IMG/VR virus record: IMGVR_UViG_2585428000_000009
Location: 1-64,000 of that record
Origin: a virus
Lineage: Duplodnaviria > Caudoviricetes
Reading direction: 5' to 3' (one strand)
Length of the DNA: 64,000 bases
Shown: positions 1 through 39,798 of the stretch, in pieces
Position numbering within the stretch: the stretch's first letter is position 1
Layout: each line of letters opens with the position of its first letter
Position numbers and translations under genes: made by a program
The notes under the pieces: generated by a model
The model's input: the letters and a program-made list of their open reading frames with translations, nothing else
The model's database searches: none
Told to the model about the DNA's origin: nothing

Positions 1-60
1 ATGCCCAACCCCGAAACGGGTAGCACAAAGCCCGGCCAGAGTTTCTATCCAAAGAATGCC

Positions 61-291
61 ATGGAAAAGAAGTACGAGCGCTGGATGAGTACTGATGAGG
101 TTTCCGAGCGGCTGAAGATTCCACCCAAGACGCTAGCGAACTGGGCTTCCTTGGGGAAGGGTCCACGTTTCGCGAGAATCGGCCGCTTTCGCCGGTACAG
201 GCTGAGCGACTTGATCGCTTGGGAAGAGGCTCTGCCGACCCGAGGCGGCAACCTGCAGGAACCGAATGGCGACTACCGCAAGGCCGCCTGA
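61..291 (+). CDS. Excisionase-like winged-HTH DNA-binding protein (alternative starts at 1 or 85)
   Basis: MSTDEVSERLKIPPKTLANWASLGKGPRFARIGRFRRYRLSDLIAW is a typical MerR/AlpA-type xis pattern; directly upstream of the integrase. Confidence 0.85.
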   Translation: MEKKYERWMSTDEVSERLKIPPKTLANWASLGKGPRFARIGRFRRYRLSDLIAWEEALPTRGGNLQEPNGDYRKAA

Positions 292-326
292 ATACGAGAC
301 CGCCAGCCCGCGGAAGGAGAATAGAC

Positions 327-1643
327 ATGGCCCAGGTCTCGTTGGAACCCGGAGCTTTGCCTCCGAAGGATAAACTCAATCCTGTCAAAGGCAAAGATGG
401 ATTATGGCGACTCACTCGGATTAGACATCGCTCCCATAGCGGCGAATACGTGAAGACCAGCGCTGTCGGACGAACTCGCCGAGAATGTCTGGACGAGTGG
501 GAGCAGGCGTTCAAGAGGAATGTTCATAAGGGTTCGAAGCGCAAGCGCACGAGCAAACGGCGACAGTTTAGCGCCACTGACAAAATGGGCGAAGTGTTCG
601 CCGAGCTCGATGCCCAGTACAAGGCCAGGGTGGATGCAGGCAAGATGTCCCAGGATACGTACAACAATTATCGATGCTATATCTATCCACCAGCGAAGAA
701 CGCGAAGCGTAGCAAAAATCCCGATTAGTTCAAACTCGATACAGAGATGGGCAGCCTCAGCATCGCCGAAGTCGCTGATGCCGCTTGGATCGCCGATTAC
801 TTGGACGAGGTCGCCGACAGTGCGCCCAGCGTTGCCTATCATCAGCACCGCCAGTTGTGCTCCGCTTTCAAGATCGCGGTACTGGGCAAAGGCATAGAGG
901 CCAGCGCCAACCCGATGCCCTATGTACCTCGACCGAGTATGGATGATGCGACGCCTCGACCGCTCAGTCCCGAAGAGCAACGAGGCGTGCTGGAGCGCAT
1001 CGATACATGGCTGAGGGATGGACGTGGCGAGGCCCGATATCTGCGAACGCTCTACCTGCTATTGCTGGGTACCGGCATGCGGCCCGGCGAAGGACTGGCG
1101 CTTCGTTGGTGCGACATTGCCGAAGAGCAGTTCGACGGGACTACTCGGTCAGTGCTGTACGTCGGAGCCACGATCAGGTGCAAGTCCGAAACCGGCCCGT
1201 ACCGGAACCCGCACCGCAAGAGCGGGAACGAATACAGAGTGATACTTCCCGATTGGCTGGCGGACGAACTGGCGAAGGAGAAGGCGCACGCCTCTCCCGC
1301 CTCGGAATATCTGCCTGTCCTACAGGGCCCGCGGAGTACGACTGGATCATGGGTCAGCGTGTCCAACGCTCGCATCTCCGTCTACGCAATGCGGAGGGGA
1401 AGTCAGTTCGCCACGTTCCGACTTTCGGACCTGCGCGACACAGTGGCCACTCACGTCGCCACGGTCACTGGGGATGACGAGCGGGCCAGCGCCCAGCTCG
1501 GACACCTGGACGGCAACAAGTCGATGGCGCAACGTCACTACATTCACCAGGGCATTCGACGCATGGTGGCGGTCGACAACGCGGACGTCCTGGAACTGCT
1601 GAACCCGTTCAAAATGGCACCAAAGTGGCACACCGGGGCCTAG
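327..1643 (+). pseudogene. Tyrosine integrase interrupted by an in-frame amber stop (726-728)
   Basis: ORF 327-728 (RBS GGAAGGAGA) and ORF 747-1643 share one frame, separated only by TAG plus 6 sense codons; catalytic motifs TGMRPGE, SDLR (HxxR variant), QLGH, RHY. Confidence 0.75.
747..1643 (+). CDS. Tyrosine recombinase core-binding plus catalytic portion (C-terminal ORF)
   Basis: LLLLGTGMRPGEGLALRWCDI, LR..VAT, QLGH, terminal Tyr in QRHYI. Confidence 0.75.
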   Translation: MGSLSIAEVADAAWIADYLDEVADSAPSVAYHQHRQLCSAFKIAVLGKGIEASANPMPYVPRPSMDDATPRPLSPEEQRGVLERIDTWLRDGRGEARYLRTLYLLLLGTGMRPGEGLALRWCDIAEEQFDGTTRSVLYVGATIRCKSETGPYRNPHRKSGNEYRVILPDWLADELAKEKAHASPASEYLPVLQGPRSTTGSWVSVSNARISVYAMRRGSQFATFRLSDLRDTVATHVATVTGDDERASAQLGHLDGNKSMAQRHYIHQGIRRMVAVDNADVLELLNPFKMAPKWHTGA

Positions 1644-1845
1644 TTCAGCAGCTCACAACCCGCTGACCAGCGGAAACGGTCAATCCTTCTTCATCATCTC
1701 GTAGATGTACCGGAACCGGCCTGAGCAGCGGCGATGCGAACAAGAATCCCGCTGAGCTGGAACTATACGTTCACTGCATATCCCCCGTTCTAACGCGTTT
1801 TCCCGCCACTTCCCCGAGATTCGAGTGTCATCGTGACACTCAACT
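1610..1845. other. Putative phage attachment site (attP-like)
   Basis: Tandem AAATGGCAC/AAGTGGCAC at the integrase 3' end, inverted GAGTGTCA-tcg-TGACACTC at 1823-1841, CTGACCAGCGG/CTGAGCAGCGG motifs flanking a gene-end-like core at 1680-1715. Confidence 0.5.
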
Positions 1846-1974
1846 TCTCACGCGAGAACCCGCAGGTTCCCGCCGTCACCACCCGATACCGCCTACAACC
1901 CGCAGACACAACACCCCTCCGAGGCACAACAGCAGCAAACACACAGCCACTCGCAGAGGCTACCCGGTTAGCGC

Positions 1975-1996
1975 TATAGTTCGAACCTATGTTCGA
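1975..1996 (+). promoter_or_regulatory. -10 hexamer TATAGT plus LexA (SOS) box TCGAAC-N4-GTTCGA
   Basis: TCGAACCTATGTTCGA at 1981-1996 is a perfect actinobacterial LexA consensus overlapping ATG 1989; TATAGT at 1975-1980. Confidence 0.85.
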
Positions 1997-2312
1997 CAAC
2001 GGCTCTACGGGCACACCCTCGATACGCCGCCATGTCGACCCGCCCCGCCCCGTCACCGTCGACATCAGCAAAGCCCTCCCCTCCGGCGGCACCCGCTTCG
2101 CCGCCAACAGCCTGCCCCTCCACGTCCGCGCCGAAGGACTCGACCTCTCCGGGCTACGCCCCGGACTGCTCTACGCCTGGGCACGCACCACCACCGGCGG
2201 CTGGCTCGGCTTCGTCCAAGTCACCATCACCACCGGCAACGGCCGCGACAAACTCACCCTGCGCCAATGGTTCCCCGAATCCGCGCTCAGCCCCCGCCAG
2301 GACACCCCATGA
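1989..2312 (+). CDS. Hypothetical protein, probably SOS-inducible and leaderless
   Basis: 107-aa ORF with GC3-biased codons; start codon inside the SOS box. Confidence 0.75.
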   Translation: MFDNGSTGTPSIRRHVDPPRPVTVDISKALPSGGTRFAANSLPLHVRAEGLDLSGLRPGLLYAWARTTTGGWLGFVQVTITTGNGRDKLTLRQWFPESALSPRQDTP

Positions 2313-2617
2313 CCGTCCACCGCGCCGACGCCATCCTCGGACTCGTCATCGACATCATCGACGACAGCCACGGCACCTTCACCGCCCGCGAGATCACCCG
2401 CGCGACCCGACCCCTGATCGACCCGCCCCCGACCCTCGACGAGGTCGCCACGGTACTCGACATGCTCGCCCACCCCGACATCGCCGGAATCAGCGCACGA
2501 GGCGACGGCACTTTCGAACACGTCCCCGGCGTCGACATCGTCGAACTGCTCTGGCAAACGCTCAACGACGACGAGGACAGCTACCGGTTCCTCGCTGAGG
2601 TAGACGACCGCTACTAG
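2309..2617 (+). CDS. Hypothetical acidic protein
   Basis: ATGA overlap with the upstream stop; coding-like codon bias. Confidence 0.7.
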   Translation: MTVHRADAILGLVIDIIDDSHGTFTAREITRATRPLIDPPPTLDEVATVLDMLAHPDIAGISARGDGTFEHVPGVDIVELLWQTLNDDEDSYRFLAEVDDRY

Positions 2618-2749
2618 CCGGTCGAGCACCGTGGCTCAACCCTATTGCGAGCAGCCGCATTGAAGCACGCGAGAAGGGGCCTACGGGTAGGCTGCCGTAC
2701 CCAAAGGGGCAGAGTTCTGCATGACTTCCATCGAAGGAAGCGAAACGCA

Positions 2750-3847
2750 ATGGACGGCGATCAGATCCGTTCCGCACGGAAAGCTCGCGGCTGGTCTCAA
2801 ACCGCACTCATGGGGGCACTGCGTACCCTCGCTGTGCGGAAAAACGTCACGCTCATGGGTCCCGATAGCCTGCGGGTCGCGTTGAGCCGGTGGGAGAACA
2901 ATCACACGACACCTGACTCCCCCTACCGCGAGTTGCTGTGCGAAGTCCTGGAGCTGACCACCGAGGACTCGCAACCGGTAGTCGAATTCGACCAGCCGAC
3001 TGACGGCTCGCTGTTCGCGCTTCTCGCTCACCACACCGACAGCCTGCGCCTGCTGGACCGCAAGCTGGGCGCCCCGGCGGTTCGTGCCCAAACCTCCAGC
3101 CACGTCGCCGCCCTTGAAGATCTGTGGCGTCGCAGCGTCGGCGCGGACCGGGCCGATGTCGCGCGAGCACAAGCCGACACTGCCGCCCTCGCGGGATGGC
3201 AGGACTTCGATTGCGGCGACACACACAACGCCGCGAAGCACTACGCACTCGCACGAACATCAGCGTCACGGTGCGGCGATGCGACACTCCTTGCCCACGC
3301 TATGGGCGAACAAGCCGCTATCCTCGCCGAAATCGGCAGGGCCGATACAGCATTCACCGAGGTGATCCGCGCGGAGAAGCTTCCGGCGCTGCCACCGCTG
3401 CTGCGATCCTGGCTCGCAGCCACACGTGCCCAGGTGGCTACTTACCTGCCCGATGGAGCCGCAATCGCCCACTCCGCACTGCACGCAGCCGAGACCGCCC
3501 TCGCCCACGTCCAATGCGGCGATGACGCCTCCCTGCCGTATCTTGCCCTCGATCCGGTTCACCTCGAACGATGGAAAGGACATATTCTCGTTCGCCTCCA
3601 AGATCCCGCCGCAGCACGGATCACAGAGCAGGCCATGCAGGCATTGCCCGGCGACTTCGTCCGCGCAGGATCAGCGCAACTGCTCGACCTCGCCGAAGCA
3701 GCAGCGACGAGGCGAGAACTCGACGAAGCAACAGCGCTGCTCGAGCAGGCCGATGCCCGGATCAGCGTCGTGAAGTCAGCCCGCCTCAAAAGGCGTCACA
3801 CACTCTTGTCCCGGCGAGTCGAACTCGCGACCGCGCGCCAACTGTAG
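2750..3847 (+). CDS. XRE-family HTH regulator with a long helical (TPR-like) C-terminal domain
   Basis: IRSARKARGWSQ...LSRWENNHTTPD HTH; LRLLDRKLGA and ALAGWQDFD.G...A..HY..A repeats typical of actinomycete XRE-TPR regulators. Confidence 0.85.
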   Translation: MDGDQIRSARKARGWSQTALMGALRTLAVRKNVTLMGPDSLRVALSRWENNHTTPDSPYRELLCEVLELTTEDSQPVVEFDQPTDGSLFALLAHHTDSLRLLDRKLGAPAVRAQTSSHVAALEDLWRRSVGADRADVARAQADTAALAGWQDFDCGDTHNAAKHYALARTSASRCGDATLLAHAMGEQAAILAEIGRADTAFTEVIRAEKLPALPPLLRSWLAATRAQVATYLPDGAAIAHSALHAAETALAHVQCGDDASLPYLALDPVHLERWKGHILVRLQDPAAARITEQAMQALPGDFVRAGSAQLLDLAEAAATRRELDEATALLEQADARISVVKSARLKRRHTLLSRRVELATARQL

Positions 3848-4372
3848 GGCAGCGAGCATTCCCACAGCCGTACCGGCACCCATCAACTCGCCTCGCGCTA
3901 GAAGGTCCACGGCCTCGTAGACGGGCACCCACACGAGCCGTCCGGCTTCCTCCGCGTCGGTCGGCGTGTTCACTTGGCGTGGGTGGTCGGCGATGAAGAC
4001 GTAGTGCTTGCTCTGAACAAGCCCCGGCATCGGCTCCAGCTCAGCCACGAGAATGAACGTCTCCGCTTCGAAACCGGTCTCCTCGAGCAGTTCCCGTCGT
4101 GCGCATGCCTCGGGGTCTTCCTCCGGGTCGACGATGCCGCCGGGAGACTCCCAACCGACCTGATCAATGATCCAGCGGTGACGCCGCACCAGCAGTACAC
4201 GCTCATGGTCGTCGATCAGCATCACGGTAGCGACGGTGTTGAGTTGCACTGAGTGGTGCGACCGCGTCATGCCGTCGGGGGCCGTGATGCTGTGGCGTTT
4301 GACGTGCAGCCACGGGCTGCCGTCGTAGACCGTCCGCTCGTCGTGAACGTGCGTACGCGGCGGTTCGAGCAT
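3776..4372 (-). CDS. Nudix hydrolase (ADP-ribose pyrophosphatase-like)
   Basis: Nudix box WESPGGIVDPEEDPEACARRELLEETGF. Confidence 0.92.
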   Translation of the reverse strand: MLEPPRTHVHDERTVYDGSPWLHVKRHSITAPDGMTRSHHSVQLNTVATVMLIDDHERVLLVRRHRWIIDQVGWESPGGIVDPEEDPEACARRELLEETGFEAETFILVAELEPMPGLVQSKHYVFIADHPRQVNTPTDAEEAGRLVWVPVYEAVDLLARGELMGAGTAVGMLAALQLARGREFDSPGQECVTPFEAG

Positions 4373-4447
4373 GCTTCTCACGGTACAGGCGATCTTGCTA
4401 CGGGTTGCTACGTTCCGCCCGGTGCCGCGGCCGTCGACGCTGACTGC

Positions 4448-4900
4448 ATGTCATGCGCACTCGACGACCCGGGATCGAGCCCGGATTGGTGCACCGCCTA
4501 TAGGCGCTGCGGTCTGCCCGCCACGGTGCGAGATGGGCTCGTCGAAGTGATCACCGACGACTGGACGTCTGTCCTGGTACTGCCGGATCGGCTAGCACGG
4601 AGAGTGTTCGAGACAACAGCCACCGGGCCGGTGCTGGTACGGCCCCGAAACGGGGTGCTGCCTCCGCGTTGGCGGTTCTTCACCTGGATTGACAAAGACC
4701 CTAGCTACGAAGTCGTATACCGGCTGATTCGCGTCGGCGGGTTCATCGCCGACCGTGGCACGCCGATTGTCCTGCCAACCAACTTGCGTTCGCGCATCTA
4801 CTGGGCACGTCTGCCCGAACATGACCTTCCCGCGCTGTCGGCGCTGATCGCGACCGCCTTGGACGCGGCGACACGCCCCTCCGGTGACACCGAGAGGTGA
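4448..4900 (+). CDS. Hypothetical protein (Nocardia-type, primase-polymerase-fragment-like)
   Basis: YRR.CGLPA...GPV.....RW.F....IVLP......W pattern recalled from proteins found next to DUF4254 genes. Confidence 0.6.
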   Translation: MSCALDDPGSSPDWCTAYRRCGLPATVRDGLVEVITDDWTSVLVLPDRLARRVFETTATGPVLVRPRNGVLPPRWRFFTWIDKDPSYEVVYRLIRVGGFIADRGTPIVLPTNLRSRIYWARLPEHDLPALSALIATALDAATRPSGDTER

Positions 4901-4906
4901 CCGGTC

Positions 4907-5368
4907 ATGCGATGCGAACCGCCTTCTCTGCCGACGCAGCATGAACTTCTGCTGGCCCTCTATGGGACGCCGGTCGACGACGAACCGTTGTGCTGGCACG
5001 CCCTTGAACTGAGGAAGCTCCATGCGCGACGACGGCGTGAATCAGATGGAGCCCGCGAATTCGACCACCAGCGCGCGGAACTCAGGGCATCAGTGGACCA
5101 GTGGGCAGCCACCCACCTGCCGCCACTGCCGCCCAGCGGTGCGGGCGAGTCGTTGGGCGTATTCATCGACCGCCTGTCCGAGGCCGCCGCCAATGCCTTC
5201 CATTTGCTGATGACCGAGGACCCCGGCAGCGACACCGTGCACGCCGCCTGGACGCGTCTCGCCGAACTCGAAAACGCCTACAGCGACCTCACCGACGACC
5301 TCGCCCGCGGCTGGCGCCGACTCCCCCACACCGAATGCGACACCACCGAAAGGAGCCTCACCGAATGA
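4907..5368 (+). CDS. DUF4254-like helical protein
   Basis: LPT..ELL, R.EL...VD.W, ESLG..IDRL, LAELE.AY.DL motifs. Confidence 0.7.
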   Translation: MRCEPPSLPTQHELLLALYGTPVDDEPLCWHALELRKLHARRRRESDGAREFDHQRAELRASVDQWAATHLPPLPPSGAGESLGVFIDRLSEAAANAFHLLMTEDPGSDTVHAAWTRLAELENAYSDLTDDLARGWRRLPHTECDTTERSLTE

Positions 5369-5607
5369 CCAACGAGGACAACACCTCCGAGATCTCGACA
5401 CCCACCCCGGCACTGCAAGCCCTGTTCCAGGCAGCCGTCGAACTCGCCGCCGCCGCAGGCACCCACCAGGTCGGCCCTGAACACCTGTTCCTCGTCTGGC
5501 ACAACAACCCCGGCGTCTTCCCGGCAGAACCACTGCGCGCCATGGGATTCGACCCCGTCGCCATCCTCGAACACCTCACCACAGCCGTCTCCGATATGAC
5601 GCCCTGA
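5365..5607 (+). CDS. Stand-alone Clp N-terminal repeat domain protein
   Basis: A.ELA...G...VGPEHLFL...L..MG.D Clp_N signature; RBS GAAAGGAG. Confidence 0.75.
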   Translation: MTNEDNTSEISTPTPALQALFQAAVELAAAAGTHQVGPEHLFLVWHNNPGVFPAEPLRAMGFDPVAILEHLTTAVSDMTP

Positions 5608-5647
5608 CCACTACGCCGAGCCACGCCTCCTCCAGAAAGGCAAAGAA

Positions 5648-6934
5648 ATGTCTCTTACCACCGACGAACAGTTCCTCACAGCGTGCTCCACCGAGAACAT
5701 CGACCCCCACGACGCCGAACAACGCATACGCACTGGAACGCTCGTCTTCCCCCGATGCTCAACCAGCCGCCACAGCAGCGCCTTCACACCCATCCTGATC
5801 GGGTCCGGCACCCGCGCGAAAGTCACCGCATTGATCGGGCTGGGACCCCGCGACACCGACCGGGACGCGATCACACAGACAACGAACGTCATCCTCGCTG
5901 CCCGTCCCGACGCGATCATGGACCTCACCACCAATCCGGCCGGGATCGCATTGCGCCGCGAGCTCAAAGACATCGTCAACGTCCCCCTGGCCGCATGCCT
6001 CACCTACGACCTGTTCACGAACCCCCGTAAAAGGCTGTCGCGCAATGAATTTCTCGACCGATTCGAGAACGGTCTCGCTGGCGGCCTACTCGACTTCGTC
6101 CTCATCCACATCGGCATGACACCTGCCCTCGCCGACCGCATGGCGCGCTCCGACCGTGTCATGCCGACCACGTCACGAGGCGGCGGCCTCATCGCCCGCT
6201 ACATGCGGCTCCACCACTGCGAAAACCCGCTGATCGAATACCTCGACGGCATCATCGACATCTGCCGCCGCACCGGCGTAACCCTCGACCTCGGAGACAT
6301 CTTCCGACCCGGCTGCGCCCACGACGCCGGCGACGATCTGAAATGGGCCGAAATCCAGCTGCAAGCCGAACTGCGCAAAGAACTCCTGCGCGGCGGCGTG
6401 CAGGTGCTGTGCGAGACCGGCGGACACATGCCCCTGCACCGCATCCCAGAACTCATCCCCGCCTACAAGGCAGCGTTGGGCGGTGCGCCTCTGTGGCTGG
6501 CCGGGCCGATGGTGATCGACAACGCCGTCACCCTCGACGACACCGTCAACACACTCGGCATCCTCACCGCCGGACAACACGGCGGCGACATGTTCGCCTC
6601 CATCACCCACAACGAGCACTACGCCATGCCCACCGCAGCCGATACCGCCACGGCCCTGCGGATGGCACGCGTCGCGATCACCGCCCTCGAGGTCGCCCGC
6701 GGAAACGACTCCGAGACCGCCCAGCAACACCGCATGAGCGTCGCCCGCCGCGCCAACGCCTGGACCGTCCAAGCCGACGAAGCCCTGTACCCCGACCTCG
6801 CCAACCAGGTGTTCATCCAACACGGCCTCAAAGAAGGAGCCCCCTGCACCATCTGCGGCCAATTCTGCCCCCACGTGATCACACCCAAGAAAGCCTCGAT
6901 CAACACGGAGACCGCCGATGCCCACGAACACTGA
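5648..6934 (+). CDS. Divergent ThiC/BzaABF-family radical SAM enzyme (phosphomethylpyrimidine synthase-like)
   Basis: D.IMDL, DF..IH.G, SRGG, ENPL, LGD..RPG, VQV..E..GH.P, GP...D, EH..MP and C-terminal CTICGQFC Fe-S motif. Confidence 0.88.
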   Translation: MSLTTDEQFLTACSTENIDPHDAEQRIRTGTLVFPRCSTSRHSSAFTPILIGSGTRAKVTALIGLGPRDTDRDAITQTTNVILAARPDAIMDLTTNPAGIALRRELKDIVNVPLAACLTYDLFTNPRKRLSRNEFLDRFENGLAGGLLDFVLIHIGMTPALADRMARSDRVMPTTSRGGGLIARYMRLHHCENPLIEYLDGIIDICRRTGVTLDLGDIFRPGCAHDAGDDLKWAEIQLQAELRKELLRGGVQVLCETGGHMPLHRIPELIPAYKAALGGAPLWLAGPMVIDNAVTLDDTVNTLGILTAGQHGGDMFASITHNEHYAMPTAADTATALRMARVAITALEVARGNDSETAQQHRMSVARRANAWTVQADEALYPDLANQVFIQHGLKEGAPCTICGQFCPHVITPKKASINTETADAHEH

Positions 6935-7949
6935 CGCCCTGGCCCGCCGCATCACCCGATGCCACCCACAAACCGCCGCCGTCGCCCAGATCGGACGTCG
7001 CGTCGCCGACGAACTGCTCAACCTTGGGGCGATGGTCCCCGCCGACGACTGGCTGATCATCGGCGGATCACTGGCGCGCGGAGAACCGACCTTCATCCCC
7101 CACGGCGGCGACCTGATCCTCGGCAGCGATATCGACTGCATGTACGTGCACTACGGCGACGAACCATCGATGCCTGTCGCCGACCTCGTCACCGTCGCCG
7201 AGAAGACATTCCCGCACGTCGACATGATGACCATGCCGCTCGCCGATTACCGCGCGCTGGGCACACTGCTCGGATTCGATGTGAAGAACATTGGGCTGTC
7301 CGTCACCGACCGCGGGCTTCCCCCACACGACAGCGTCCAGCTCGAGTTGCCCCGCGACGCCTACGAGAACCTGCTCTACTACACGCAAGCTTGGTTCTGG
7401 TCACGATGCACACAGCGCTGGCTCACCGGCCCTGATGCCGACTTCCACCGCACCGTCAGTCGGCTGTGCGTGAAAATCCTGCGCTCGACAGCCATGCTCG
7501 ACGGTGCGTACTGTCACCACGACCTGCACAAGATGCCGACGAACGTGGCCGAACGGATGCGCAGCGAACTCGCGTGGCGTGCCAACCCAACCCAGCCGCC
7601 CATGAACCCAGGCCGATTCTGGTCCTACCTCGCCGACGCCTTCGACCGATTCGACACCGCCTACGGCTGCGTCCACACCGACGCCATCACCGGCACCCGA
7701 TACTCACGCAGCCTCCACGGCCACATCATCGCTGGCCACCACCAACGCGTCCACCGACTCGCCCGACACCTCGCCTACACCTGGCTGGCCTCACCGGACC
7801 CTCACCAGTTGGCTAATGTCATGCGTCAAGTGTGGGACTCGGTCACCGGCTGGACCGGGACCATCCCGCACGAAGGGCCGGAAGACTACTTCGCAGCCCA
7901 CCAGCGTGAGATCCACGACCATCTACTCGAGATGAAAGTGCGCACATGA
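6918..7949 (+). CDS. Putative Pol-beta-superfamily nucleotidyltransferase
   Basis: LIIGGSLARGE...SDID...VD motif followed by a helical domain; overlaps both neighbours. Confidence 0.7.
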   Translation: MPTNTDALARRITRCHPQTAAVAQIGRRVADELLNLGAMVPADDWLIIGGSLARGEPTFIPHGGDLILGSDIDCMYVHYGDEPSMPVADLVTVAEKTFPHVDMMTMPLADYRALGTLLGFDVKNIGLSVTDRGLPPHDSVQLELPRDAYENLLYYTQAWFWSRCTQRWLTGPDADFHRTVSRLCVKILRSTAMLDGAYCHHDLHKMPTNVAERMRSELAWRANPTQPPMNPGRFWSYLADAFDRFDTAYGCVHTDAITGTRYSRSLHGHIIAGHHQRVHRLARHLAYTWLASPDPHQLANVMRQVWDSVTGWTGTIPHEGPEDYFAAHQREIHDHLLEMKVRT

Positions 7950-8932
7950 AACTGCTGGCCACCGGGGGCGCAGGCTACGTCGGCGCGACCGTGACACGAC
8001 TGCTGCTCGACGCCGGACACCAGGTCACCGTTATCGACGACCTGTCCCGCAACGACGCCACCCAAATCCCGGCAGGCGCCGAATTCAAGCAGTTGCGCGT
8101 CCACGACGTCGCACAGGTCCTCACCCCCGGAGCCGGATTCGACGCCGTCCTCCACTTCGCTGGGCTCATCGCCGCCGGCGAATCCATGGCACACCCAGAG
8201 TGGCACTGGGACAACAACACCCGCGCCTCTCTCGCACTGCTCGACGCCATGAGCGAGGCGGGCGTCGACAAACTCGTCTTCTCCTCCACCGCCGCCGTCT
8301 ATGGCGAGCCGACCGAACTGCCGCTCACCGAGACAGCGCCGACCAACCCGGTGAACACCTACGGCGACACCAAACTCGCCATCGACCGCGCCATCACCTC
8401 CTTCACCCGCGCTTCCAATCTCGGTGCGATCAGCCTGCGCTACTTCAACGTCGCCGGCGCCCACCACTGCTCCGACGGCACCTGGATCGGCGAACGCCAC
8501 TCCCCCGAAACCCACATCATTCCGCTCGCCTTGGCCGCGGCAGCCGATGGACGGAAGTTCCAACTGTTCGGCGACGACTACCCGACCGCCGACGGCACCT
8601 GCATCCGCGACTACATCCACATCACCGACCTCGCGCGCGCTCACCTGCTCGCACTCGACGCTGTCACGGCCAGTGAGCATCAAATCTTCAACTTGGGCAA
8701 CGGTGTCGGGTTCTCCAACCTTCAGGTCATCGACGCTATCCGTGAGGTCACCGGCCTCCCCCTCGACCTGGAGATCGCTCCCCGCAGGCCCGGAGACCCC
8801 GCCACACTCTTCGCGTCATCATCCCGCGCGCAGACCATGCTCGGCTGGCAGCCGGACAAGCCCGGTATCCGCGACATGGTCGCCGACGCGTGGGCGTTCC
8901 ACCAGCATTCCAGCGCGGCCATCACACACTGA
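7946..8932 (+). CDS. galE: UDP-glucose 4-epimerase (extended SDR)
   Basis: TGGAGYVG, HFAG, FSSTAAVYG, YGDTK, LRYFNVAG, GTCIRDYIH, RRPGDP. Confidence 0.93.
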   Translation: MKLLATGGAGYVGATVTRLLLDAGHQVTVIDDLSRNDATQIPAGAEFKQLRVHDVAQVLTPGAGFDAVLHFAGLIAAGESMAHPEWHWDNNTRASLALLDAMSEAGVDKLVFSSTAAVYGEPTELPLTETAPTNPVNTYGDTKLAIDRAITSFTRASNLGAISLRYFNVAGAHHCSDGTWIGERHSPETHIIPLALAAAADGRKFQLFGDDYPTADGTCIRDYIHITDLARAHLLALDAVTASEHQIFNLGNGVGFSNLQVIDAIREVTGLPLDLEIAPRRPGDPATLFASSSRAQTMLGWQPDKPGIRDMVADAWAFHQHSSAAITH

Positions 8933-9093
8933 CGTTCTGTGCCAACTTCCCGCTGTGACTAGCGGAAACCGACGTGCGGCCCTCCTCAACCGGTGGCATG
9001 GTCGGTTACGCTGCGCGAAAGCCAGCGACGTAACGGCAACCCGACACCCCGCCGATCGACTGGCACACCACCGATCGCGCCCAGGGGAACCGC

Positions 9094-9474
9094 ATGAACC
9101 ACCCGCCGCAGCCACCCGCGACCCCACGTAAACAGAGTTCGACACTCTGGATCGCCGGTCCAATCGCGGGCGTGGCGATATTGGCCGTCCTCGCCCTCGC
9201 CGGCTTCACCAAGTCGGATCTCGACATCTTGGGCGGGATCGTGTTTGCCCTGCTCGCGCCCATTGTCGTGATCGTCCTGCTGATGCGCGTATTGGTGCGG
9301 GGAGGCAACAAACCACCGCCGCCTGTTGTTATCGCCGCACCGGTAGCCACCGCGCCGCCGCCTGGCTGGTACCCAGACCATACCGGCGCTCTGCGCTGGT
9401 TCGACGGCCGTCAATGGACAGAGTTCACTCAACCCGCCGCCGGCGACTCTCCCCACCCGCCAGTGTCATCGTGA
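9094..9474 (+). CDS. DUF2510-domain membrane protein
   Basis: Two TM helices followed by PPGWYPD....LRWFDGRQWTE. Confidence 0.85.
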   Translation: MNHPPQPPATPRKQSSTLWIAGPIAGVAILAVLALAGFTKSDLDILGGIVFALLAPIVVIVLLMRVLVRGGNKPPPPVVIAAPVATAPPPGWYPDHTGALRWFDGRQWTEFTQPAAGDSPHPPVSS

Positions 9475-9485
9475 CCGTGGAACGA

Positions 9486-9528
9486 CGAAACCCGCCCCGA
9501 CCCAGGCTATGGGTCGGGGCGGGTTTCG
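9486..9528. terminator. Hairpin terminator, probably bidirectional, between the cargo and tail operons
   Basis: 19-bp perfect stem CGAAACCCGCCCCGACCCA-ggcta-TGGGTCGGGGCGGGTTTCG between convergent genes. Confidence 0.85.
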
Positions 9529-9540
9529 GTGTGGGCTCGG

Positions 9541-10440
9541 TCAGGTGATGCGGACATAGGAGCTGGCGCCGCCGTTGATACGACAGTAGTTCGCGACAGT
9601 CGCGGTCGCACGCAACGTCACCACGTCATTACCAGCGATATCCATGGTGTGGTTGACGGTGGCAGTGCCTGACCCGAACGCGGAGATGTTGGCGCCCGAT
9701 CCCGTGGCGACGAGCGCGCCGTTCACCCACAGTTGCAGAGTCACTGTGACGCTGATTGCCTGCGTGTTGGTGATCGAACACGAACAAGACAGAGATGCGC
9801 CAGATTTGGAGCCATTGGCCACCAGGCCGTTGCCCGACAGTGTCGAGCCCGGATAGCCGGTGGTATCCGCGGTCCACGACGGGACCTCGGTGTAGCTGCT
9901 CGGGATGTTGTAGTTGCTGTTCTTCGTCATCCCGGACGGCGAGAACACGGTGCCGGCCGCGGAGAGCGTTCCCGTGCCACTGAATTGTGCAGTAGCGGAT
10001 GGATTCGCTGCGGCGGCGAGCGTGCCAGAACCAGTGAATACCGCTGATGCGGTCACCAGGCTCAGCGCGGACAGCATCCCTTCCCCGCTGAATGCTGCGG
10101 TGGCAGTCGCGTACGCAGGGGCCGCGAGTGTGCCCTCGCCAGTGAAGAACGCATCGGTTTCGTTCGTAGGAACGATCAACTCACCTACGCCGGTGAACCC
10201 AGCGACCGCGGTGGGCGCGCCGAGTGCCGTGAGAGCAGCTTCCCCGCCGAATACCGCTGTCGCGACGGGCGCGCCGGCCGCCGACAGTGCGCCGTCGCTG
10301 CTGAACACAGCGACCGGCGGCGGCGTGTACAGCAGACTGGCAGGAAGAACCATCCGCGATCCTACCGGCAGCGACGAGAGCCGCGAGATAGGCTGCGGCA
10401 GGCTCGCTTTCGTACGGGAACGAGACGGAAGCGATGCCAT
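9541..10440 (-). CDS. Minor tail / tail fibre protein
   Basis: Repeated F.G.G.L.A motifs, beta-rich C-terminus; last gene of the virion operon. Confidence 0.75.
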   Translation of the reverse strand: MASLPSRSRTKASLPQPISRLSSLPVGSRMVLPASLLYTPPPVAVFSSDGALSAAGAPVATAVFGGEAALTALGAPTAVAGFTGVGELIVPTNETDAFFTGEGTLAAPAYATATAAFSGEGMLSALSLVTASAVFTGSGTLAAAANPSATAQFSGTGTLSAAGTVFSPSGMTKNSNYNIPSSYTEVPSWTADTTGYPGSTLSGNGLVANGSKSGASLSCSCSITNTQAISVTVTLQLWVNGALVATGSGANISAFGSGTATVNHTMDIAGNDVVTLRATATVANYCRINGGASSYVRIT

Positions 10441-10443
10441 AGG

Positions 10444-10797
10444 TCAGCTCAATGCGAAGCTGGGGGTCACCTTGATCGTGCCCGCGGAGTTGATTGTGAT
10501 GTTCGGCGCCAGAGCAGCTTTGTCGTAGAAGGTGCCGGTGCTGCTGGCCGACCACAAACCGACATGCGTGTAAGTGCCCGCTGGGGCAGTGAAGGTCAAC
10601 TCTGCCATCGTGAGCGCACCACCGGAGCCGGAGGTCCATGTGCCCTGCACGCGGGCATAGCCGCCGCCTGTCGCTTCGCCGGTGCCTGTGGTGCCGGGGT
10701 CGGATGTGTGCAGAGAAACCCAGACTTGGGCAGTGCCGGACAGATTCTTGTAGGCGTCCGCCAGCACTTGCCGGGTGGACGCGACAGCAATTGCCAT
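10444..10797 (-). CDS. Minor tail protein
   Basis: VSLHTSDPGTTG.GEATGGGYAR, a conserved actinophage tail motif. Confidence 0.8.
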   Translation of the reverse strand: MAIAVASTRQVLADAYKNLSGTAQVWVSLHTSDPGTTGTGEATGGGYARVQGTWTSGSGGALTMAELTFTAPAGTYTHVGLWSASSTGTFYDKAALAPNITINSAGTIKVTPSFALS

Positions 10798-10803
10798 AGG
10801 GCG

Positions 10804-11118
10804 TTACTCCTGACGGGCGATATTGCCCCGGTACCAGCACAAATCCATGCCGTCCGTGTAGCGGGCGTAGATGCGGTAGTTGGCTGGCGAGTTGATGGTG
10901 TCGCTCACCGCAGATGAGACATCCCAAGAAACGGTTGCGGACGAGACCGACGCCGACCATGTCGCAAGTTCAGTTTTGGTGGCGGCGTCGTAGATGATGA
11001 GATCGACAGCGGTGCCGACAGGAACCGTTTCGCCGGAGGGCATCTGAATGTCGTGAACGAAATCTTGTCCGGGTACGAGGACAAGCGTCGCCACGATCGG
11101 TTCGTGTCCAATTGTCAT
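10804..11118 (-). CDS. Minor tail protein (LtfC/DUF7264-like)
   Basis: IG.EP....L.L..GQDF...WYRG.I.R pattern and synteny. Confidence 0.7.
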   Translation of the reverse strand: MTIGHEPIVATLVLVPGQDFVHDIQMPSGETVPVGTAVDLIIYDAATKTELATWSASVSSATVSWDVSSAVSDTINSPANYRIYARYTDGMDLCWYRGNIARQE

Positions 11119-11142
11119 TGCGAAGCCCTAGATTCGTCGGAG

Positions 11143-11547
11143 TTATTGGACGGGGCCGCGCCATTCCGGGTCGTCCTTGTACAGAGCTGCACGCAGGTCG
11201 TCGAGGAAGCATGAGTACTGGCCGTCGCTGCGGTAGAGGCGGGTGTAGAGGTCTCCGTGGTATTCGGACAACTCCAGAAAGGCTTTGTGTGCTTCGAGGA
11301 GTTCGATGAACCAGCGGACACCGCCGGTGCCCTGCGCTTCGGTACCGGGCTTGCCGTCGAAATGGAACCCTTGTGGGTCATAGTCGGGGTCGTCGGCCAG
11401 GATCGCCTTGTACAATGCGGGCATGACCTTGTTGTGGACGTATTTGATGTCGTCCGGCAGGGAGTCGAAGCCGATGTGACGACGAATCCCGAAGCCGTCC
11501 AACGCCAGCGAGTAGTAGAACTCCTTGACGTGCTTCAGCCGGTCCAT
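11143..11547 (-). CDS. Hypothetical phage protein
   Basis: Translationally coupled to the upstream tail gene. Confidence 0.65.
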   Translation of the reverse strand: MDRLKHVKEFYYSLALDGFGIRRHIGFDSLPDDIKYVHNKVMPALYKAILADDPDYDPQGFHFDGKPGTEAQGTGGVRWFIELLEAHKAFLELSEYHGDLYTRLYRSDGQYSCFLDDLRAALYKDDPEWRGPVQ

Positions 11548-12413
11548 CACACCTCCCGCAAGTAGAAGAACGGCAGTTTCGTCGAGGCGTCGTAGCGCAG
11601 GTTCGATTCGGTGATCGTCGCGGGGATGACTCCGTTGTTGTATTGGCCCGCGTACGCGTACTGCTTGCGCGGGTAGGTGCCGCTGGAGTCCCGGTTGAGG
11701 TCGGTGATCCGGATGCACATCAATGACGCCGCAGTTTGGAATGTGTTGGTGTCCTGCAAGACGCCGACCGCGATCACTTCGTTCTGCACAGCGGTGAACG
11801 TCGTGCCGAAGTTGAAGATGTGTTCGGTGTTGGTGTTCGTGATGTTGTTCTTGATGTTGAACGTCGCCGAACTGGTGTTCAGCAGTGTCAAATCTCCTGT
11901 GGCAGGGTCCATTCGGAACACACCCAGGTAGGCGCCCAATACATCCAGGAACGTTTGGCTGTCGCCGGTGATGAATCCGGCGGCGTTGAACTCGATGTCC
12001 TTCGTGACGCGAATGAACCCGAGTTCCAGGTAGTCGCTGTTGTTACCGGAGGGCTGGTAATCAGGGATCGACCCGAAACGGTTGATCGAATGCGAGTGGG
12101 AGTTGTCGCCCGATCCACCGCTGCCTGTACCGGTCGCGACCAGACGCACCATTTCAGAGCGAGGGAACGTGGCCTGCTCTTTCTGATTCATGGTGTGCCA
12201 CATGGTGGAGTCGATCGGCACTTCCTCGACGGAGGGCTTCCCTTCCAGAGGAGTGTCGACGTTGGTCTCGTGGCTGTTGCGGGCGTTGTCGATTGCGATT
12301 CGCGCGTCACCAGTCATGGTGGTTTCGGCGTCTTCTTGCGTCATCGCCTGGAACGCGGCGAACTCACCTACGTTGAGCGCGCCATCAGGATTCGACTGAT
12401 TAGGGGCAGTCAC
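11547..12413 (-). CDS. Minor tail protein
   Basis: MTAPNQ..PDGA N-terminus common in actinophage minor tail proteins; position. Confidence 0.7.
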   Translation of the reverse strand: MTAPNQSNPDGALNVGEFAAFQAMTQEDAETTMTGDARIAIDNARNSHETNVDTPLEGKPSVEEVPIDSTMWHTMNQKEQATFPRSEMVRLVATGTGSGGSGDNSHSHSINRFGSIPDYQPSGNNSDYLELGFIRVTKDIEFNAAGFITGDSQTFLDVLGAYLGVFRMDPATGDLTLLNTSSATFNIKNNITNTNTEHIFNFGTTFTAVQNEVIAVGVLQDTNTFQTAASLMCIRITDLNRDSSGTYPRKQYAYAGQYNNGVIPATITESNLRYDASTKLPFFYLREV

Positions 12414-12439
12414 CCGTCACCCCCTGGCAGAGTGAAGTG

Positions 12440-12763
12440 TCAGATGTCGTTTGAGATTTCGGCCGGGATCGGTGGAGGCTCGGGCGAGGGCACATGCAAG
12501 CGGATGAAGGCCAAGAGATCTTGGACGTAGTCGACGAGGACGTCGATGCGACGCTGGTCCTTGTAGTGCTGCCGCACGTCGTCGACGTGCTGAGCCTCCA
12601 GCGTTTTCACACGCTCACGAAGATCCCTCAACTCCCCGAGCACCGGTTCGAGCACCGACTTGAAGTCTTCGCGCTGCGAATCCAGAGACCGAGACCGCGG
12701 CGCGAACCATCCGAGGATCACGCCGAGGATTCCCGCCGCCGCTCCGATCAGAGCGGTAACCAT
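12440..12763 (-). CDS. Lysis-cassette membrane protein (one TM plus coiled coil)
   Basis: N-terminal TM, heptad repeat, PPP.P tail; follows the holin. Confidence 0.7.
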   Translation of the reverse strand: MVTALIGAAAGILGVILGWFAPRSRSLDSQREDFKSVLEPVLGELRDLRERVKTLEAQHVDDVRQHYKDQRRIDVLVDYVQDLLAFIRLHVPSPEPPPIPAEISNDI

Positions 12764-12769
12764 GAGCGG

Positions 12770-13111
12770 CTATCCGATCGACGGGGTCTTGACCGCAGCC
12801 ACCCCCAAGCCGAGAGCGGTGGACACGACCGCGACGACCGCACCGGCCTGCGAATCGGTCACCGCACCAACACCGACCAGAGCCGGTGCCGCGACGGCCA
12901 GGATGCCGTACAGCCAGGTCCGCCACGTCGCGGTCGAATTCGCGCCCGCCACAGTGAAACCGAGCACGGCCGCCACCACGGGCGCCCACAGCGCGAGATC
13001 GTTGTCGGTGGCCAGACCGAAGGATACGGCGAGCACCTGAAGCGGAATGAGCAGCGCGTAGAGTCGCCCGCGTACATCGGCGGACAGGTCACGCAGGGTG
13101 TCGAAAGACAT
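12770..13111 (-). CDS. Holin
   Basis: About four TM segments with a duplicated R..LY unit, immediately after the endolysin. Confidence 0.8.
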   Translation of the reverse strand: MSFDTLRDLSADVRGRLYALLIPLQVLAVSFGLATDNDLALWAPVVAAVLGFTVAGANSTATWRTWLYGILAVAAPALVGVGAVTDSQAGAVVAVVSTALGLGVAAVKTPSIG

Positions 13112-13151
13112 GAGTTACCTCGATGGGTAGTCGAAATGGGGTCGCCGCGAG

Positions 13152-14891
13152 TTAGGCAGCGAGATCGGCGACGGGCGTATCCGCGCCGTCACCGGTGATC
13201 AGGCCGAGCGTCTGCTTCGGCGTCCAATAGATGCGGCCGTGCTCGAACTCCTGGTAGGAGCCGGTGTCGAAAGGCTGCTCGTCGGAGGTGGGCCACCCCC
13301 ACGGCCCGTTCTCGAAACCGCTGCGATTCCAGCGGTTACGGATCTCGCCACGCACCCACGCGCCCGGCCGTCCGTAGCGTCGGTAGATGGCGCCGTTCTC
13401 GAAGCCCTGCACGTCGCCGACAGGAGTGCCGTCAGCGCCCTTCAGCACGGTGTGGTCGCCGACCGGATAGCCGACCGGCCCTGCTTCCCAACCGAGTTCG
13501 GCCCACTTGCCGAATACATTGGCCGGAACAGCGTGTGCGCCGACGCGGGGATGCCAGTAGATGTAGCCGTGCTCGAATTCGGCGTAGCGGCCTTCGCCGT
13601 CGGGAGCGATCAGTTCTCCTTCGGTACGGCGGGCACCGATCCACGCTTTCGCCCGCTCGTACTCCTGGTCGATCATGTTCACCGGCGGGGCGGGAGCACC
13701 ACCGCGCGCGTACATGTCGACGTAGCGGCGTGCAACATCCCACGGGAAGTTGGGGCCGACGTCGGTGTGCGTGCCGATCCCCAGGGCACGGGTCACGTAC
13801 GCGTGGTCGGAGATGCCGTCACGTACCGAATACGGGGGCGCGATGACGTCGATGGCATGCCCGACTTCGCGGGCGTACTGCACCGACAGCCAGCACGCGA
13901 TCCTGATGTCGTGTTCGCGGTCAAGCCACTGTTCGCGCGACCACGATGCGCGACTGCCAGCGAAGCAGATGTTGTTGGTGTACGGATTCGCGTCCAAGAC
14001 CGACCAGGAGGCGCGATCGAGCGGAACCACGTGCACCACAGTGCTATTGCCGATCACCGAGTGATAGGAGACGCCGTTGTTCGTGTTCTTCAGGTAGTCG
14101 GCGAGCCCCCACACGCCGCTACCGTCGGCGTTGCCGCCTTCTTGGGTGTGCCACAGGGTGTTGCGGACTCGGGCGCCCCAGCGTTGAGAGCTGGAGTTGC
14201 CGAACGAGAAGTGCTCTTGAAAATCGGGACGGTCCACGCGGGGTTCCTCAGGGTTCGTTGTGGGCGCGGCCTGCCATTGACCGAAGTCCTCAGCCCACGT
14301 GGTGTTGACGTCGATGCCGATGCCATTGATCCAGTCCTCGTCGACACGCTCCTGGCGGATCTGGCAGCCAGTCACCCACTGGACGGGGAGGGACGCGTGC
14401 CAGCGGCCATTCGCGTCGTAGCGGGACCAACTGCGGGTCTGCCACCGCCACCGGATGCCGTCCTCACCGGCCCACCACATCGAACGCTGCCCGCCGTACA
14501 CGCCGACCCACTCACGACCGAGCACCGACGCAGCGCCATTGAGGTAGGGCAAAACCTTGCTGTTCCAGGTGGTGAGGTCGACGTCGGCGTCGACAGAGAA
14601 GTAGATCGGCCGATTGCGGGGTCCGCCGCACGCGATGTGCTGTGCGAGCGCCGCTTTCGCATCCGCGACACCGCCCTCGAAACCGGCCTGCCAATCCGCC
14701 TTCGTGCGCTGGTAATTCGACACCAGCGGCATCCCCAACTCCAGGTAGCGGGCGGCTTCCTCCGGGATCAGGATCTTGTTCGGCAGACCACGGTCAGGGC
14801 TATTGGCCAGATAGCGGATGGCACCTTGATAGCCAGCTGCGCGGACAGCGTCAGCGCCCGCACGGCCCGCGGCATGGTCGACCAGCCTCAT
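13152..14891 (-). CDS. Endolysin (Lysin A): DUF1906 glycoside hydrolase + amidase-2 + LGFP repeats
   Basis: GAIRYL/IYFSVDAD/GVYG (DUF1906); HTQEG, SYH, H...GTHTDVG (Zn amidase); FEHG.IYW/GYP repeats (LGFP). Confidence 0.9.
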   Translation of the reverse strand: MRLVDHAAGRAGADAVRAAGYQGAIRYLANSPDRGLPNKILIPEEAARYLELGMPLVSNYQRTKADWQAGFEGGVADAKAALAQHIACGGPRNRPIYFSVDADVDLTTWNSKVLPYLNGAASVLGREWVGVYGGQRSMWWAGEDGIRWRWQTRSWSRYDANGRWHASLPVQWVTGCQIRQERVDEDWINGIGIDVNTTWAEDFGQWQAAPTTNPEEPRVDRPDFQEHFSFGNSSSQRWGARVRNTLWHTQEGGNADGSGVWGLADYLKNTNNGVSYHSVIGNSTVVHVVPLDRASWSVLDANPYTNNICFAGSRASWSREQWLDREHDIRIACWLSVQYAREVGHAIDVIAPPYSVRDGISDHAYVTRALGIGTHTDVGPNFPWDVARRYVDMYARGGAPAPPVNMIDQEYERAKAWIGARRTEGELIAPDGEGRYAEFEHGYIYWHPRVGAHAVPANVFGKWAELGWEAGPVGYPVGDHTVLKGADGTPVGDVQGFENGAIYRRYGRPGAWVRGEIRNRWNRSGFENGPWGWPTSDEQPFDTGSYQEFEHGRIYWTPKQTLGLITGDGADTPVADLAA

Positions 14892-15565: not shown

Positions 15566-15572
15566 GCCTCAC

Positions 15573-17270: not shown

Positions 17271-17340
17271 TTCTGTTTGACGGCCCCCTTAAGCTAAGTG
17301 ATAGAAGCCCGAAATCACCTCATCTACCAGGAGGTTCGCG

Positions 17341-17868: not shown

Positions 17869-17871
17869 GAG

Positions 17872-18798: not shown

Positions 18799-18800
18799 AG

Positions 18801-29546: not shown

Positions 29547-29686
29547 GAATGTGCCTCCTGGACACGGAGAAACACCCGTCGGCGACCTGGCCAGACAGGG
29601 TGTTGAAATGACGAAACCCCCAGGGCCACAGGCCAGAACTTGGGGGTTGGTGAATTCCGCTTGGCGCGGAAGTGTCAGGTGCTCAG

Positions 29687-29759
29687 ATCTCTCGCCAGGA
29701 CTCGAACCTGGACTCGAAGAACCAAACTCTTCGGTGCTGCCGGATTACACCACGAGAGA
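29687..29759 (-). tRNA. tRNA-Gln (TTG)
   Basis: Cloverleaf: TCTCTCG/CGAGAGA acceptor, GAAGA-GT TTG GT-TCTTC anticodon arm, CCAGG-TTCGAGT-CCTGG T arm; no encoded CCA. Confidence 0.85.
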
Positions 29760-39222: not shown

Positions 39223-39298
39223 GGATGCTCCTGAAAAGTGTTGCCGGAACATCCATCCGGACGAGTTAAGCCTGAAGCCACAGACGACGGGCGGGTTG

Positions 39299-39634: not shown

Positions 39635-39699
39635 ATGCGCACGGCGGGGAGTGCATGCCCCTGTTGCCCCGACGACTCCCTGTCGCCGGACCGCGCTCG

Positions 39700-39771: not shown

Positions 39772-39798
39772 TCGGTTCCGCCACGAGGCGAAACACCG

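Follow-up and report, generated by a model that had tools for sequence, protein, structure and literature searches.

A ThiC-like radical-SAM gene, a nucleotidyltransferase gene and a galE paralogue in a provirus record: a candidate mobile biosynthetic operon of Nocardia

Why does a stretch of DNA classed as a provirus carry genes for a ThiC-family radical S-adenosylmethionine (SAM) enzyme, a nucleotidyltransferase (NTase) and a sugar epimerase, and what might the three make together? The question is raised by the window analyzed here, which is the first 64 kb (64,000 nucleotides; G+C content, ~65%) of the 89-kb IMG/VR provirus record IMGVR_UViG_2585428000_000009 (Duplodnaviria; Caudoviricetes). 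A first-pass annotation, made from the letters alone, had proposed a phage-borne signaling or defense cassette. Here, we put at about 0.5 the probability that the segment at 5.3-9.0 kb is a self-contained, horizontally mobile Nocardia biosynthetic operon for a specialized small metabolite, the product of which is most likely neither the thiamine pyrimidine nor a known defense signal. The trio at its center consists of three genes that overlap by 17 and 4 nt, as that annotation had them:

5648-6934, plus strand: ThiC-family radical-SAM enzyme of a distinct clade, 428 aa (PF01964, 278 bits).
6918-7949, plus strand: NTase-fold protein, 343 aa, of an unnamed small family ("c1").
7946-8932, plus strand: UDP-glucose 4-epimerase GalE paralogue, 328 aa (TIGR01179, 342.9 bits; cut-off, 262.3).

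A scan of one genome per species gave 33 loci, of which 29 were from Nocardia (one a metagenome-assembled genome [MAG]) and one each from Streptomyces, Kribbella, an Acidimicrobiales MAG and a Bacillota MAG. Genes were counted with tblastn in these 33 loci and with hidden Markov models (HMMs) on six-frame open reading frames (ORFs) in 34 loci, the window included. Counts of upstream genes are lower bounds, as three loci (L006, L020 and L022) were cut short upstream, and the clusters used for the NsdA HMM contained the window regulator, which makes the match of the window a matter of construction (among the 33 fetched loci, 24 were positive). The counts were as follows:

ThiC-like enzyme: tblastn, 33/33; HMM, 34/34.
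NTase: tblastn, 31/33; HMM, 32/34.
GalE: tblastn, 29/33; HMM, 30/34.
NsdA-family regulator: HMM, 25/34.
DUF4254 protein, upstream of the ThiC-like gene: tblastn, 16/33; HMM, 23/34.
APH-family kinase: HMM, 9/34.
TrwC relaxase, within 10 kb: HMM, 9/34.
Methyltransferase: HMM, 6/34.
Clp_N protein: tblastn, 1/33; HMM, 2/34.
Nudix hydrolase: tblastn, 1/33 (L034); with the window, 2/34.

The ThiC-like/NTase pair is the constant core across two phyla and GalE is a frequent third member; the suggestion that the three genes form a functional unit, found together in other genomes too, is borne out by this neighborhood search, as is the claim that a helix-turn-helix (HTH)-tetratricopeptide repeat (TPR) regulator accompanies it. 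In the usual Nocardia order, genes for an APH kinase and an NsdA-family regulator on the minus strand are followed by those for DUF4254, the ThiC-like enzyme, the NTase and GalE on the plus strand, with the regulators mostly divergent and ~2.1 to 2.4 kb upstream. Nudix and Clp_N are not part of the conserved unit, because each was found in only one other locus. For Clp_N that locus was Nocardia sp. CC227C (L002; 82% identity; ratio of nonsynonymous to synonymous substitution rates [dN/dS], 0.51), and for Nudix it was Nocardia sp. CNY236 (L034; 61% identity by tblastn).

Selection on the trio and its spread within the genus were assessed separately. Between the window and L002, dN/dS was 0.15 for the ThiC-like gene, 0.17 for the NTase gene and 0.12 for galE, which indicates purifying selection. 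In a genus survey, the NTase profile matched in 51 of 267 Nocardia genomes; counted by hand, these rows comprised 37 full-length genes (of which two have an internal stop and one is split), 9 fragments and 5 distant matches to the N terminus only. Roughly one in seven Nocardia species has the operon, with frequent decayed copies. A metagenome scan returned only six short loci, and the ThiC-like gene stood directly upstream of the NTase gene in all three contigs with a full-length NTase. In L034 (3900-8200), matches to the ThiC-like, NTase and GalE proteins lie in pieces, the trio being decayed; it is followed by a regulator and Nudix pair 60 to 61% identical to that of the window, the only other locus with this pair.

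The PF01964 match of the ThiC-like enzyme spans residues 7 to 411 (profile positions 13 to 417 of 420), which is the full-length domain also found in ThiC, BzaA, BzaB and BzaF and agrees with the original naming of a ThiC/Bza-family enzyme. Unlike those proteins, it fails the equivalog cut-offs, both for ThiC (NF009895, 277.6 versus 410; TIGR00190, 231.1 versus 460; NF006763, 159.5 versus 650) and for BzaB (TIGR04386, 217.6 versus 700). A protein from Nocardia otitidiscaviarum is 96% identical to it; among the matches listed, most of the other 50 proteins, nearly all from Nocardia, are 51 to 71% identical, and all of these homologues are named ThiC (phosphomethylpyrimidine synthase) by their source. 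ThiC matches in the phage collection are only 26 to 31% identical to it. Among known radical rearrangements, that catalyzed by ThiC is one of the most complex, and to our knowledge only two outcomes have been described for its family, namely, hydroxymethylpyrimidine phosphate (HMP-P) and 5-hydroxybenzimidazole.

Active-site residues were mapped by hand by aligning a profile of the clade to Arabidopsis ThiC (4s25), with the ligands named in PMC4389238 (AtThiC numbering). By this mapping, the clade appears to share with the known enzymes the phosphate ligands Y286, H322, S342, R343, G344 and R386, the imidazole-N3 ligand D383, E422, two histidines that bind the second metal (H426 and H490) and, for SAM, the contacts E489 and L259; replaced are the ribose-hydroxyl ligand N228 (Leu; L62), the stacking Y449 (Trp; W283) and M572 (Ile). 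Three C-terminal cysteines (C400, C403 and C407) are invariant in 22/22 aligned clade members, including two at 31 to 38% identity. They form a CX2CX3C motif, where the motif for the [4Fe-4S] cluster of canonical ThiC is given as a C-terminal CX2CX4C in that paper, and the HMMER alignment to 4s25 has a one-residue gap at this point. Because most ligands and the three cluster cysteines are kept, the enzyme looks catalytically competent from its sequence, and its substrate is probably still a phosphorylated imidazole ribotide, bound in an altered pocket; a 5'-phosphorylated imidazole ribotide and 5'-deoxyadenosyl radical chemistry would then be common to this clade, ThiC and the Bza enzymes.

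The surroundings of the clade also differ from those of ThiC and the Bza enzymes, the NTase gene being nearly always adjacent, in mobile islands or in nonribosomal peptide synthetase-polyketide synthase (NRPS-PKS) clusters, with no thiamine or cobamide neighbors or riboswitch. ThiD, ThiE, GalT and CobT (PF02277) were not found in the 89-kb record, so the statement that other thiamine, cobamide and Leloir genes are missing stands. An Rfam scan of positions 1-12000 gave only two chance-level rows, with no thiamine pyrophosphate (TPP) riboswitch or other family.

The NTase had no match in Pfam, PHROG, NCBIfam or PADLOC. Its motif GGSLARGEP...SDIDC is the G-S...D-x-D signature of Pol-beta nucleotidyltransferases and reads SD(I/V)D across 20 homologues, in which G50 and S70 are invariant and G49, S51, D71 and D73 at least 90% conserved; one Streptomyces paralogue lacks the DxD. 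An AlphaFold (AF2) model (predicted local distance difference test [pLDDT], 92.7; predicted template modeling score [pTM], 0.90) was searched with Foldseek, for which the ten best rows were HalB and ANT(4') chains and lower rows LinB, MNT and CD-NTases, the best E value being only 7e-3. Comparison with 48,161 chains in VIA-align gave ANT(3'')(9) at Z 9.8 (202 residues aligned; root mean square deviation, 3.7), followed by DrrA (9.3), AAD(9) (8.5), two GlnE domains (8.3 and 8.2), MNT (8.1), LinB (7.4) and HalB (7.2), where Z values of 7 to 10 are middling by the tool's own caveat. Residues 142 to 250 of the NTase match HEPN-like "substrate-binding" bundles.

By its motif and predicted nucleotidyltransferase fold, the protein was rightly assigned as a Pol-beta-type NTase, with Z values that are middling, and its nearest architectures in the model appear to be enzymes that add AMP to a hydroxyl of a small molecule or protein. 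With the ANT aminoglycoside/lincosamide nucleotidyltransferases and the GlnE, DrrA and MNT AMPylases, it shares the GS...DxD motif and a predicted Pol-beta NTase fold joined to a helical HEPN-like domain; it differs in belonging to no sequence family, in an extra C-terminal helical region (~250-343), in the tiny size of the c1 family and in always having a ThiC-like gene next to its own. A profile search of 1.84 billion representatives found only 81 proteins at an E value of <=1e-3 and 29 at <=1e-30; ten of the matches (eight weak, two at E values of 1e-28 to 1e-33) had no Pfam family either.

The third gene product belongs to the GalE family by score, in line with the NDP-sugar 4-epimerase originally proposed, and its presumed role on a sugar follows from that family. 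A second, housekeeping GalE is encoded elsewhere in 5/5 Nocardia carrier genomes, and a canonical ThiC (~630 bits) is present in 5/5 besides the cassette copy (212 to 290 bits; in two pieces in G002); the operon is extra to housekeeping thiC and galE.

What the pair may be used for is indicated by its settings outside Nocardia. In Streptomyces (L019), the ThiC-like gene is preceded by NRPS-PKS genes (PCP-C, C-A-PCP and KS-AT-ACP) and followed by genes for an SGL-family protein, an alpha/beta hydrolase, three NTase paralogues, a short-chain dehydrogenase/reductase (SDR) and a methyltransferase. The Kribbella locus (L032) adds two major facilitator superfamily exporters, a class II aldolase, an SsfX3-like GDSL enzyme, a biotin/lipoyl carrier and a stand-alone adenylation enzyme, and the Acidimicrobiales MAG (L026) has clusters c16, c17, c61 and c62 in common with L019 and L032. 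GalE is absent from these NRPS-PKS versions. In the Bacillota MAG (L031; ThiC-like protein 38% identical), genes for an SDR epimerase, the ThiC-like enzyme and a 396-aa NTase-like protein stand in a row; the N terminus of the last matches the NTase profile (hhalign probability, 81.7%; E value, 1e-5) and carries the motif GSLARxEP...SDID. Around them lie genes for WecG/TagA and GT2 glycosyltransferases, a NusG-like protein and two ABC exporters. Such settings are those of specialized metabolite or glycoconjugate synthesis, and the NRPS-PKS clusters with exporters, together with the Bacillota glycan locus, point to specialized metabolism.

Two details of these loci are added here. The three Streptomyces paralogues occupy positions 13067-17007 of L019, and the one at 13067-14101, without the DxD, may be a noncatalytic partner. 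In Kribbella (L032, 8567-11293), the ThiC-like domain (residues 486 to 885) lies in a frame that is open for 908 aa, which is either an N-terminal extension without a Pfam family or a miscalled start.

Whether the trio belongs to the phage is a separate matter, for which two features that border the cassette are needed:

747-1643, plus strand: tyrosine-integrase-like gene, 298 aa (PF00589, 26.4 bits, slightly below the cut-off of 27.1; 27.7 bits with frame neighbors).
9486-9528: perfect 19-bp inverted repeat (5-nt loop) that separates the cassette from the first minus-strand phage gene.

The integrase match is the sole one in the 89-kb record, in which PF07508, PF00239 and PF00665 (serine recombinases and rve transposase) had no match, and its product is 26 to 34% identical to Gordonia phage integrases that sit mid-genome. 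The hairpin stands between two converging gene blocks and, from its structure, is likely a two-way terminator. The cassette had been placed in an accessory slot between the tail operon and the att site: it does lie between the integrase and the phage fiber, lysin and tail genes, but no att repeats support the other boundary, since a comparison of the first 3 kb with the rest of the record for att-like direct repeats gave nothing longer than 21 nt, and that on the inverted strand. No phage relative was found by megablast of positions 2000-10000 against the phage collection, by IMG/VR scans with the ThiC-like protein, the ThiC-like alignment and the NTase alignment, or by tblastn of the NTase against phage records, so that a phage-specific role, which the earlier reading implied, finds no second viral contig or phage record with the ThiC-like clade or the NTase.

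Relatives of the cassette in bacterial DNA have other flanks. L002 has only positions 5304-9024 in common with the window (3.7 kb; Clp_N and the trio), at 90% DNA identity and with sharp ends, and its flanks are ordinary chromosomal genes (RsbU-like, luciferase-like, GT2, LysR, L,D-transpeptidase and FolD). An integrase adjoins the cassette in L023. Four public runs with the same species label were compared over positions 1-20000, and none covers 10 to 20 kb at 88% likeness or more. In run X1, a single 12,142-nt contig holds 1973-2574 and 2683-8969 (215 differences in 6,287) and departs from the window at both ends (1973 and 8969), with unlike sequence on each side. Run X6 has 1-2668 and ~5300-10005 without 2669-4669, and run X7 lacks most of the trio, having only parts of the ThiC-like gene and galE. 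X1, X2 and X6 all have the island but not the phage part.

Our conclusion is that a mosaic, mobile island, either inside the prophage or abutting it, carries the cassette as cargo, and the description "phage-borne cassette" is not confirmed: the island also occurs without phage genes in other runs, is chromosomal in L002 and has no att repeats. It resembles prophage morons and lysogenic-conversion cassettes in its site between integrase and lysis/tail genes, its transcription against the late genes and the strong hairpin that closes it, and differs from them in occurring also without this phage under the same species label, in plain chromosome and near relaxases, and in no other viral record searched. 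Provirus callers can extend boundaries to nearby integrases, and an integrase-bounded "provirus" call can take in an island with a history independent of the phage. In run X6, depth over 1-1334 is ~2-fold that over 1335-2668 and 191 reads diverge from the window at 1703, which suggests two contexts for the integrase region in that strain.

Between the integrase and the trio lie four further genes and a candidate coding ORF:

2645-3847, plus strand: NsdA-family XRE-HTH/TPR-like regulator, 400 aa (NF053720, 105 bits; cut-off, 75).
3776-4381, minus strand: Nudix hydrolase, 201 aa (PF00293, 69.7 bits), convergent with the regulator gene, the 3' end of which it overlaps.
4253-4900, plus strand: putative coding ORF, 215 aa (G+C content at third codon positions [GC3], 0.71).
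4907-5368, plus strand: DUF4254 protein, 153 aa (PF14063, 28.9 bits; cut-off, 27).
~5365-5607 (start perhaps 5335), plus strand: small Clp_N-domain protein, ~80 aa (PF02861, 24.3 bits; cut-off, 20.7).

Family scans confirmed the DUF4254-like, Clp-N, Nudix and HTH regulator genes (the last with a helical domain) that had been read upstream of the trio. The regulator matches HTH_3 only weakly (19.4 bits; cut-off, 23) and phrog_10886, a transcriptional regulator family, at an E value of 9e-12, and is 60% identical to its homologue beside the decayed trio of L034. On NF053720, the common divergent regulator type scores 245.5 bits and a second type 78.2. NsdA and NsdB have roles in Streptomyces development. 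As in the pathway-specific regulation of actinomycete clusters by proteins of the NsdA/NsdB type, NF053720 members adjoin the operon; the window copy differs in lying on the same strand as the trio, 3 kb upstream with other genes between, and in showing no significant similarity to the common type by BLASTP.

The Nudix protein has a generic PADLOC match (PDC-S07; E value, 6.5e-10), and its presence here may presumably be that of a "Pif" immunity gene of the type known from actinomycete integrative and conjugative elements (AICEs; pSAM2). The ORF at 4253-4900 had no match in Pfam, PHROG, NCBIfam or PADLOC and was found in 0/33 loci by tblastn.

The DUF4254 protein, which Atlas assigns to DUF4254 clusters at 0.96, is confidently modeled by AF2 as a four-helix bundle (pLDDT, 86.7) with no informative PDB match (best Foldseek E value, 0.44). 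Among the Nocardia loci, its copies are 25 to 39% identical versus 49 to 79% for the three enzymes, and so diverge faster, and the family is multicopy, with 3 to 8 copies in each of 10 of the 151 genomes sampled from the taxonomic family. A proposal that NsdA-family regulators are usually partnered by DUF4254 was rejected, as only 1/30 other DUF4254 loci in Nocardia-family genomes (L042-L071) had an NsdA match and 1/30 an NTase match. The neighbors at these 30 loci were GntR/UTRA regulators (9/30), ParA-like ATPases (7/30), a ~100-aa protein (7/30), XRE-DUF5753 regulators (3/30) and "GT4-conflict" glycosyltransferases (3/30), with no NsdA or ThiC-like adjacency as a rule; this set resembles the backbone of a mobile element or conflict system. 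In one table row each of two papers, a DUF4254 gene is tabulated near XRE/DUF397, ImmA/IrrE and FtsK genes in Amycolatopsis (PMC13609835) and as linked to the heptosyltransferase RfaF in Flavobacteria (PMC9425974). DUF4254 looks like an accessory or regulatory gene of the element.

Taken together, the families suggest how a biosynthetic operon at 5.3-9.0 kb might work. The ThiC-like enzyme, being of a separate clade, would rearrange a phosphorylated imidazole ribotide similar to aminoimidazole ribotide (AIR) into a new heterocycle. The ANT/GlnE-like NTase would add a nucleoside monophosphate to a hydroxyl of that heterocycle or of an intermediate, activating or masking it, and the dedicated GalE paralogue may supply or epimerize a UDP-hexose. 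A DUF4254 gene normally heads the operon, the NsdA-family HTH-TPR regulator, the association of which is seen in the counts above, probably controls it, and the whole travels as mobile-element cargo.

Several points weigh against such a pathway. Every chemical step in it would follow from family resemblance. Genes for a transporter, a glycosyltransferase, a carrier protein and tailoring enzymes are all missing from the Nocardia operon, which would make it unusually minimal, and no acceptor step for GalE is visible. The BLASTP comparison indicates that the window regulator and the usual divergent one are not orthologues. The middling structural matches of the NTase model include protein AMPylases (DrrA, GlnE and MNT), so its target could be a protein.

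The alternative that survives best, though we consider it improbable, is the modification of an envelope glycan or glycolipid, in which the trio would make a nucleotide-activated substituent or sugar that host glycosyltransferases attach to a surface polymer, with a change in phage receptors or surface properties (lysogenic or island conversion). In its favor are a GalE that by score is a true UDP-hexose 4-epimerase, the Bacillota row among glycosyltransferase, NusG-like and exporter genes, a GT2 gene just downstream in L002, the tabulated link of DUF4254 to RfaF and a site beside tail and lysis genes that suits a conversion gene. However, the Bacillota support is a single locus, genes for a glycosyltransferase, a flippase or a polymerase are missing from the conserved Nocardia unit, and the NRPS-PKS versions do without GalE; moreover, by the mapping above, retention of the imidazole-binding Asp and of an aromatic residue for stacking in the ThiC-like enzyme favors a heterocyclic substrate over a plain sugar.

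We give little credence to a nucleotide-derived signal or antiphage system, the reading in the first-pass annotation, by which the trio makes a signal that the HTH-TPR protein senses and the Nudix enzyme degrades, for control of lysis-lysogeny, neighbor sensing or defense. An NsdA-family regulator does accompany the operon in 25/34 loci (window included), but a pathway-specific regulator beside a biosynthetic operon is the simpler account of that association. The weak likeness of the predicted NTase fold to HalB and CD-NTases, the recurrence of the regulator and Nudix pair beside the decayed trio in L034 and a patchy distribution with many decayed copies, as in defense islands, are also consistent with it. 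Set against these, no PADLOC-DB 2.0 model (2023 library) matches the ThiC-like enzyme, NTase, GalE, DUF4254 protein, Clp_N protein or regulator (6/8 window proteins without a match), there is no effector gene, the genes occur in no other viral record searched, and the pair sits within NRPS-PKS clusters that also encode exporters. A defense system is not supported by these results, nor is a Nudix found only in the window and L034 as a component; the regulator may still sense the product.

A bolder form of the biosynthetic proposal, which we regard as a long shot, is that the ThiC-like/NTase pair represents a third functional branch of the ThiC family, a radical-SAM route leading from an AIR-like ribotide to a nucleotidylated new heterocycle and so to a new class of nucleotide conjugates; in Nocardia this molecule would be the ligand of the adjacent NsdA-family regulators, a transferable signal or antimetabolite brought into new hosts by mobile elements, here a prophage.

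An auxiliary thiamine gene that boosts HMP-P supply for host or phage is very improbable, for although the Pfam ThiC domain is full length, the source databases call the homologues phosphomethylpyrimidine synthase and most AIR, SAM and metal ligands are kept by the mapping above, the protein falls below every ThiC equivalog cut-off, is distant from the ThiC matches of the phage collection, has CX2CX3C in place of the CX2CX4C cited and changes at N228 and Y449, is almost constantly linked to an NTase and comes with no TPP riboswitch in positions 1-12000 and no ThiD or ThiE in the record, next to a housekeeping ThiC in 5/5 carrier genomes.

The enzyme set is real, conserved and uncharacterized, and its interest lies mainly in radical-SAM enzymology and Nocardia natural products. 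A conserved third clade of the ThiC family with an altered cluster motif and altered substrate-contact residues is a lead to new radical-SAM chemistry, and its recurrence in mobile islands, NRPS-PKS clusters and a glycan locus is a lead to a Nocardia metabolite, in a genus rich in unexplored natural products. A literature search, with subscription journals and supplements outside its reach, returned no paper on the clade or the gene combination.

Phage genes occupy the minus strand from position 9541 onward, among them the following:

10444-10797, minus strand: Gp80-like fiber protein.
13152-14738, minus strand: phage lysin with an Rv2525c-like glycoside-hydrolase-like domain, amidase_2 and three LGFP repeats.
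14888-15565, minus strand: Phage_gene29-family protein.
18801-23942, minus strand: ORF of 1,713 aa, a candidate tape measure by size alone.
33863-35173: terminase, 54% identical to the terminases of 34- to 39-kb Streptomyces phages.

A promoter scan gave 0 sites, and a terminator scan gave 3 weak sites, all on the minus strand and fewer than in shuffled sequences. The 89-kb record may be a composite of a prophage of ~50 to 60 kb and other material. Beyond the window, a second long series of minus-strand genes fills positions 64000-89029 of the record. Five tRNA genes (Pro, Met, Trp, Ser and Ser) are clustered on the minus strand at 39298-40016, and a lone tRNA-Gln gene lies at 29686-29759, between ORFs of the phage structural block by the gene calls made here.

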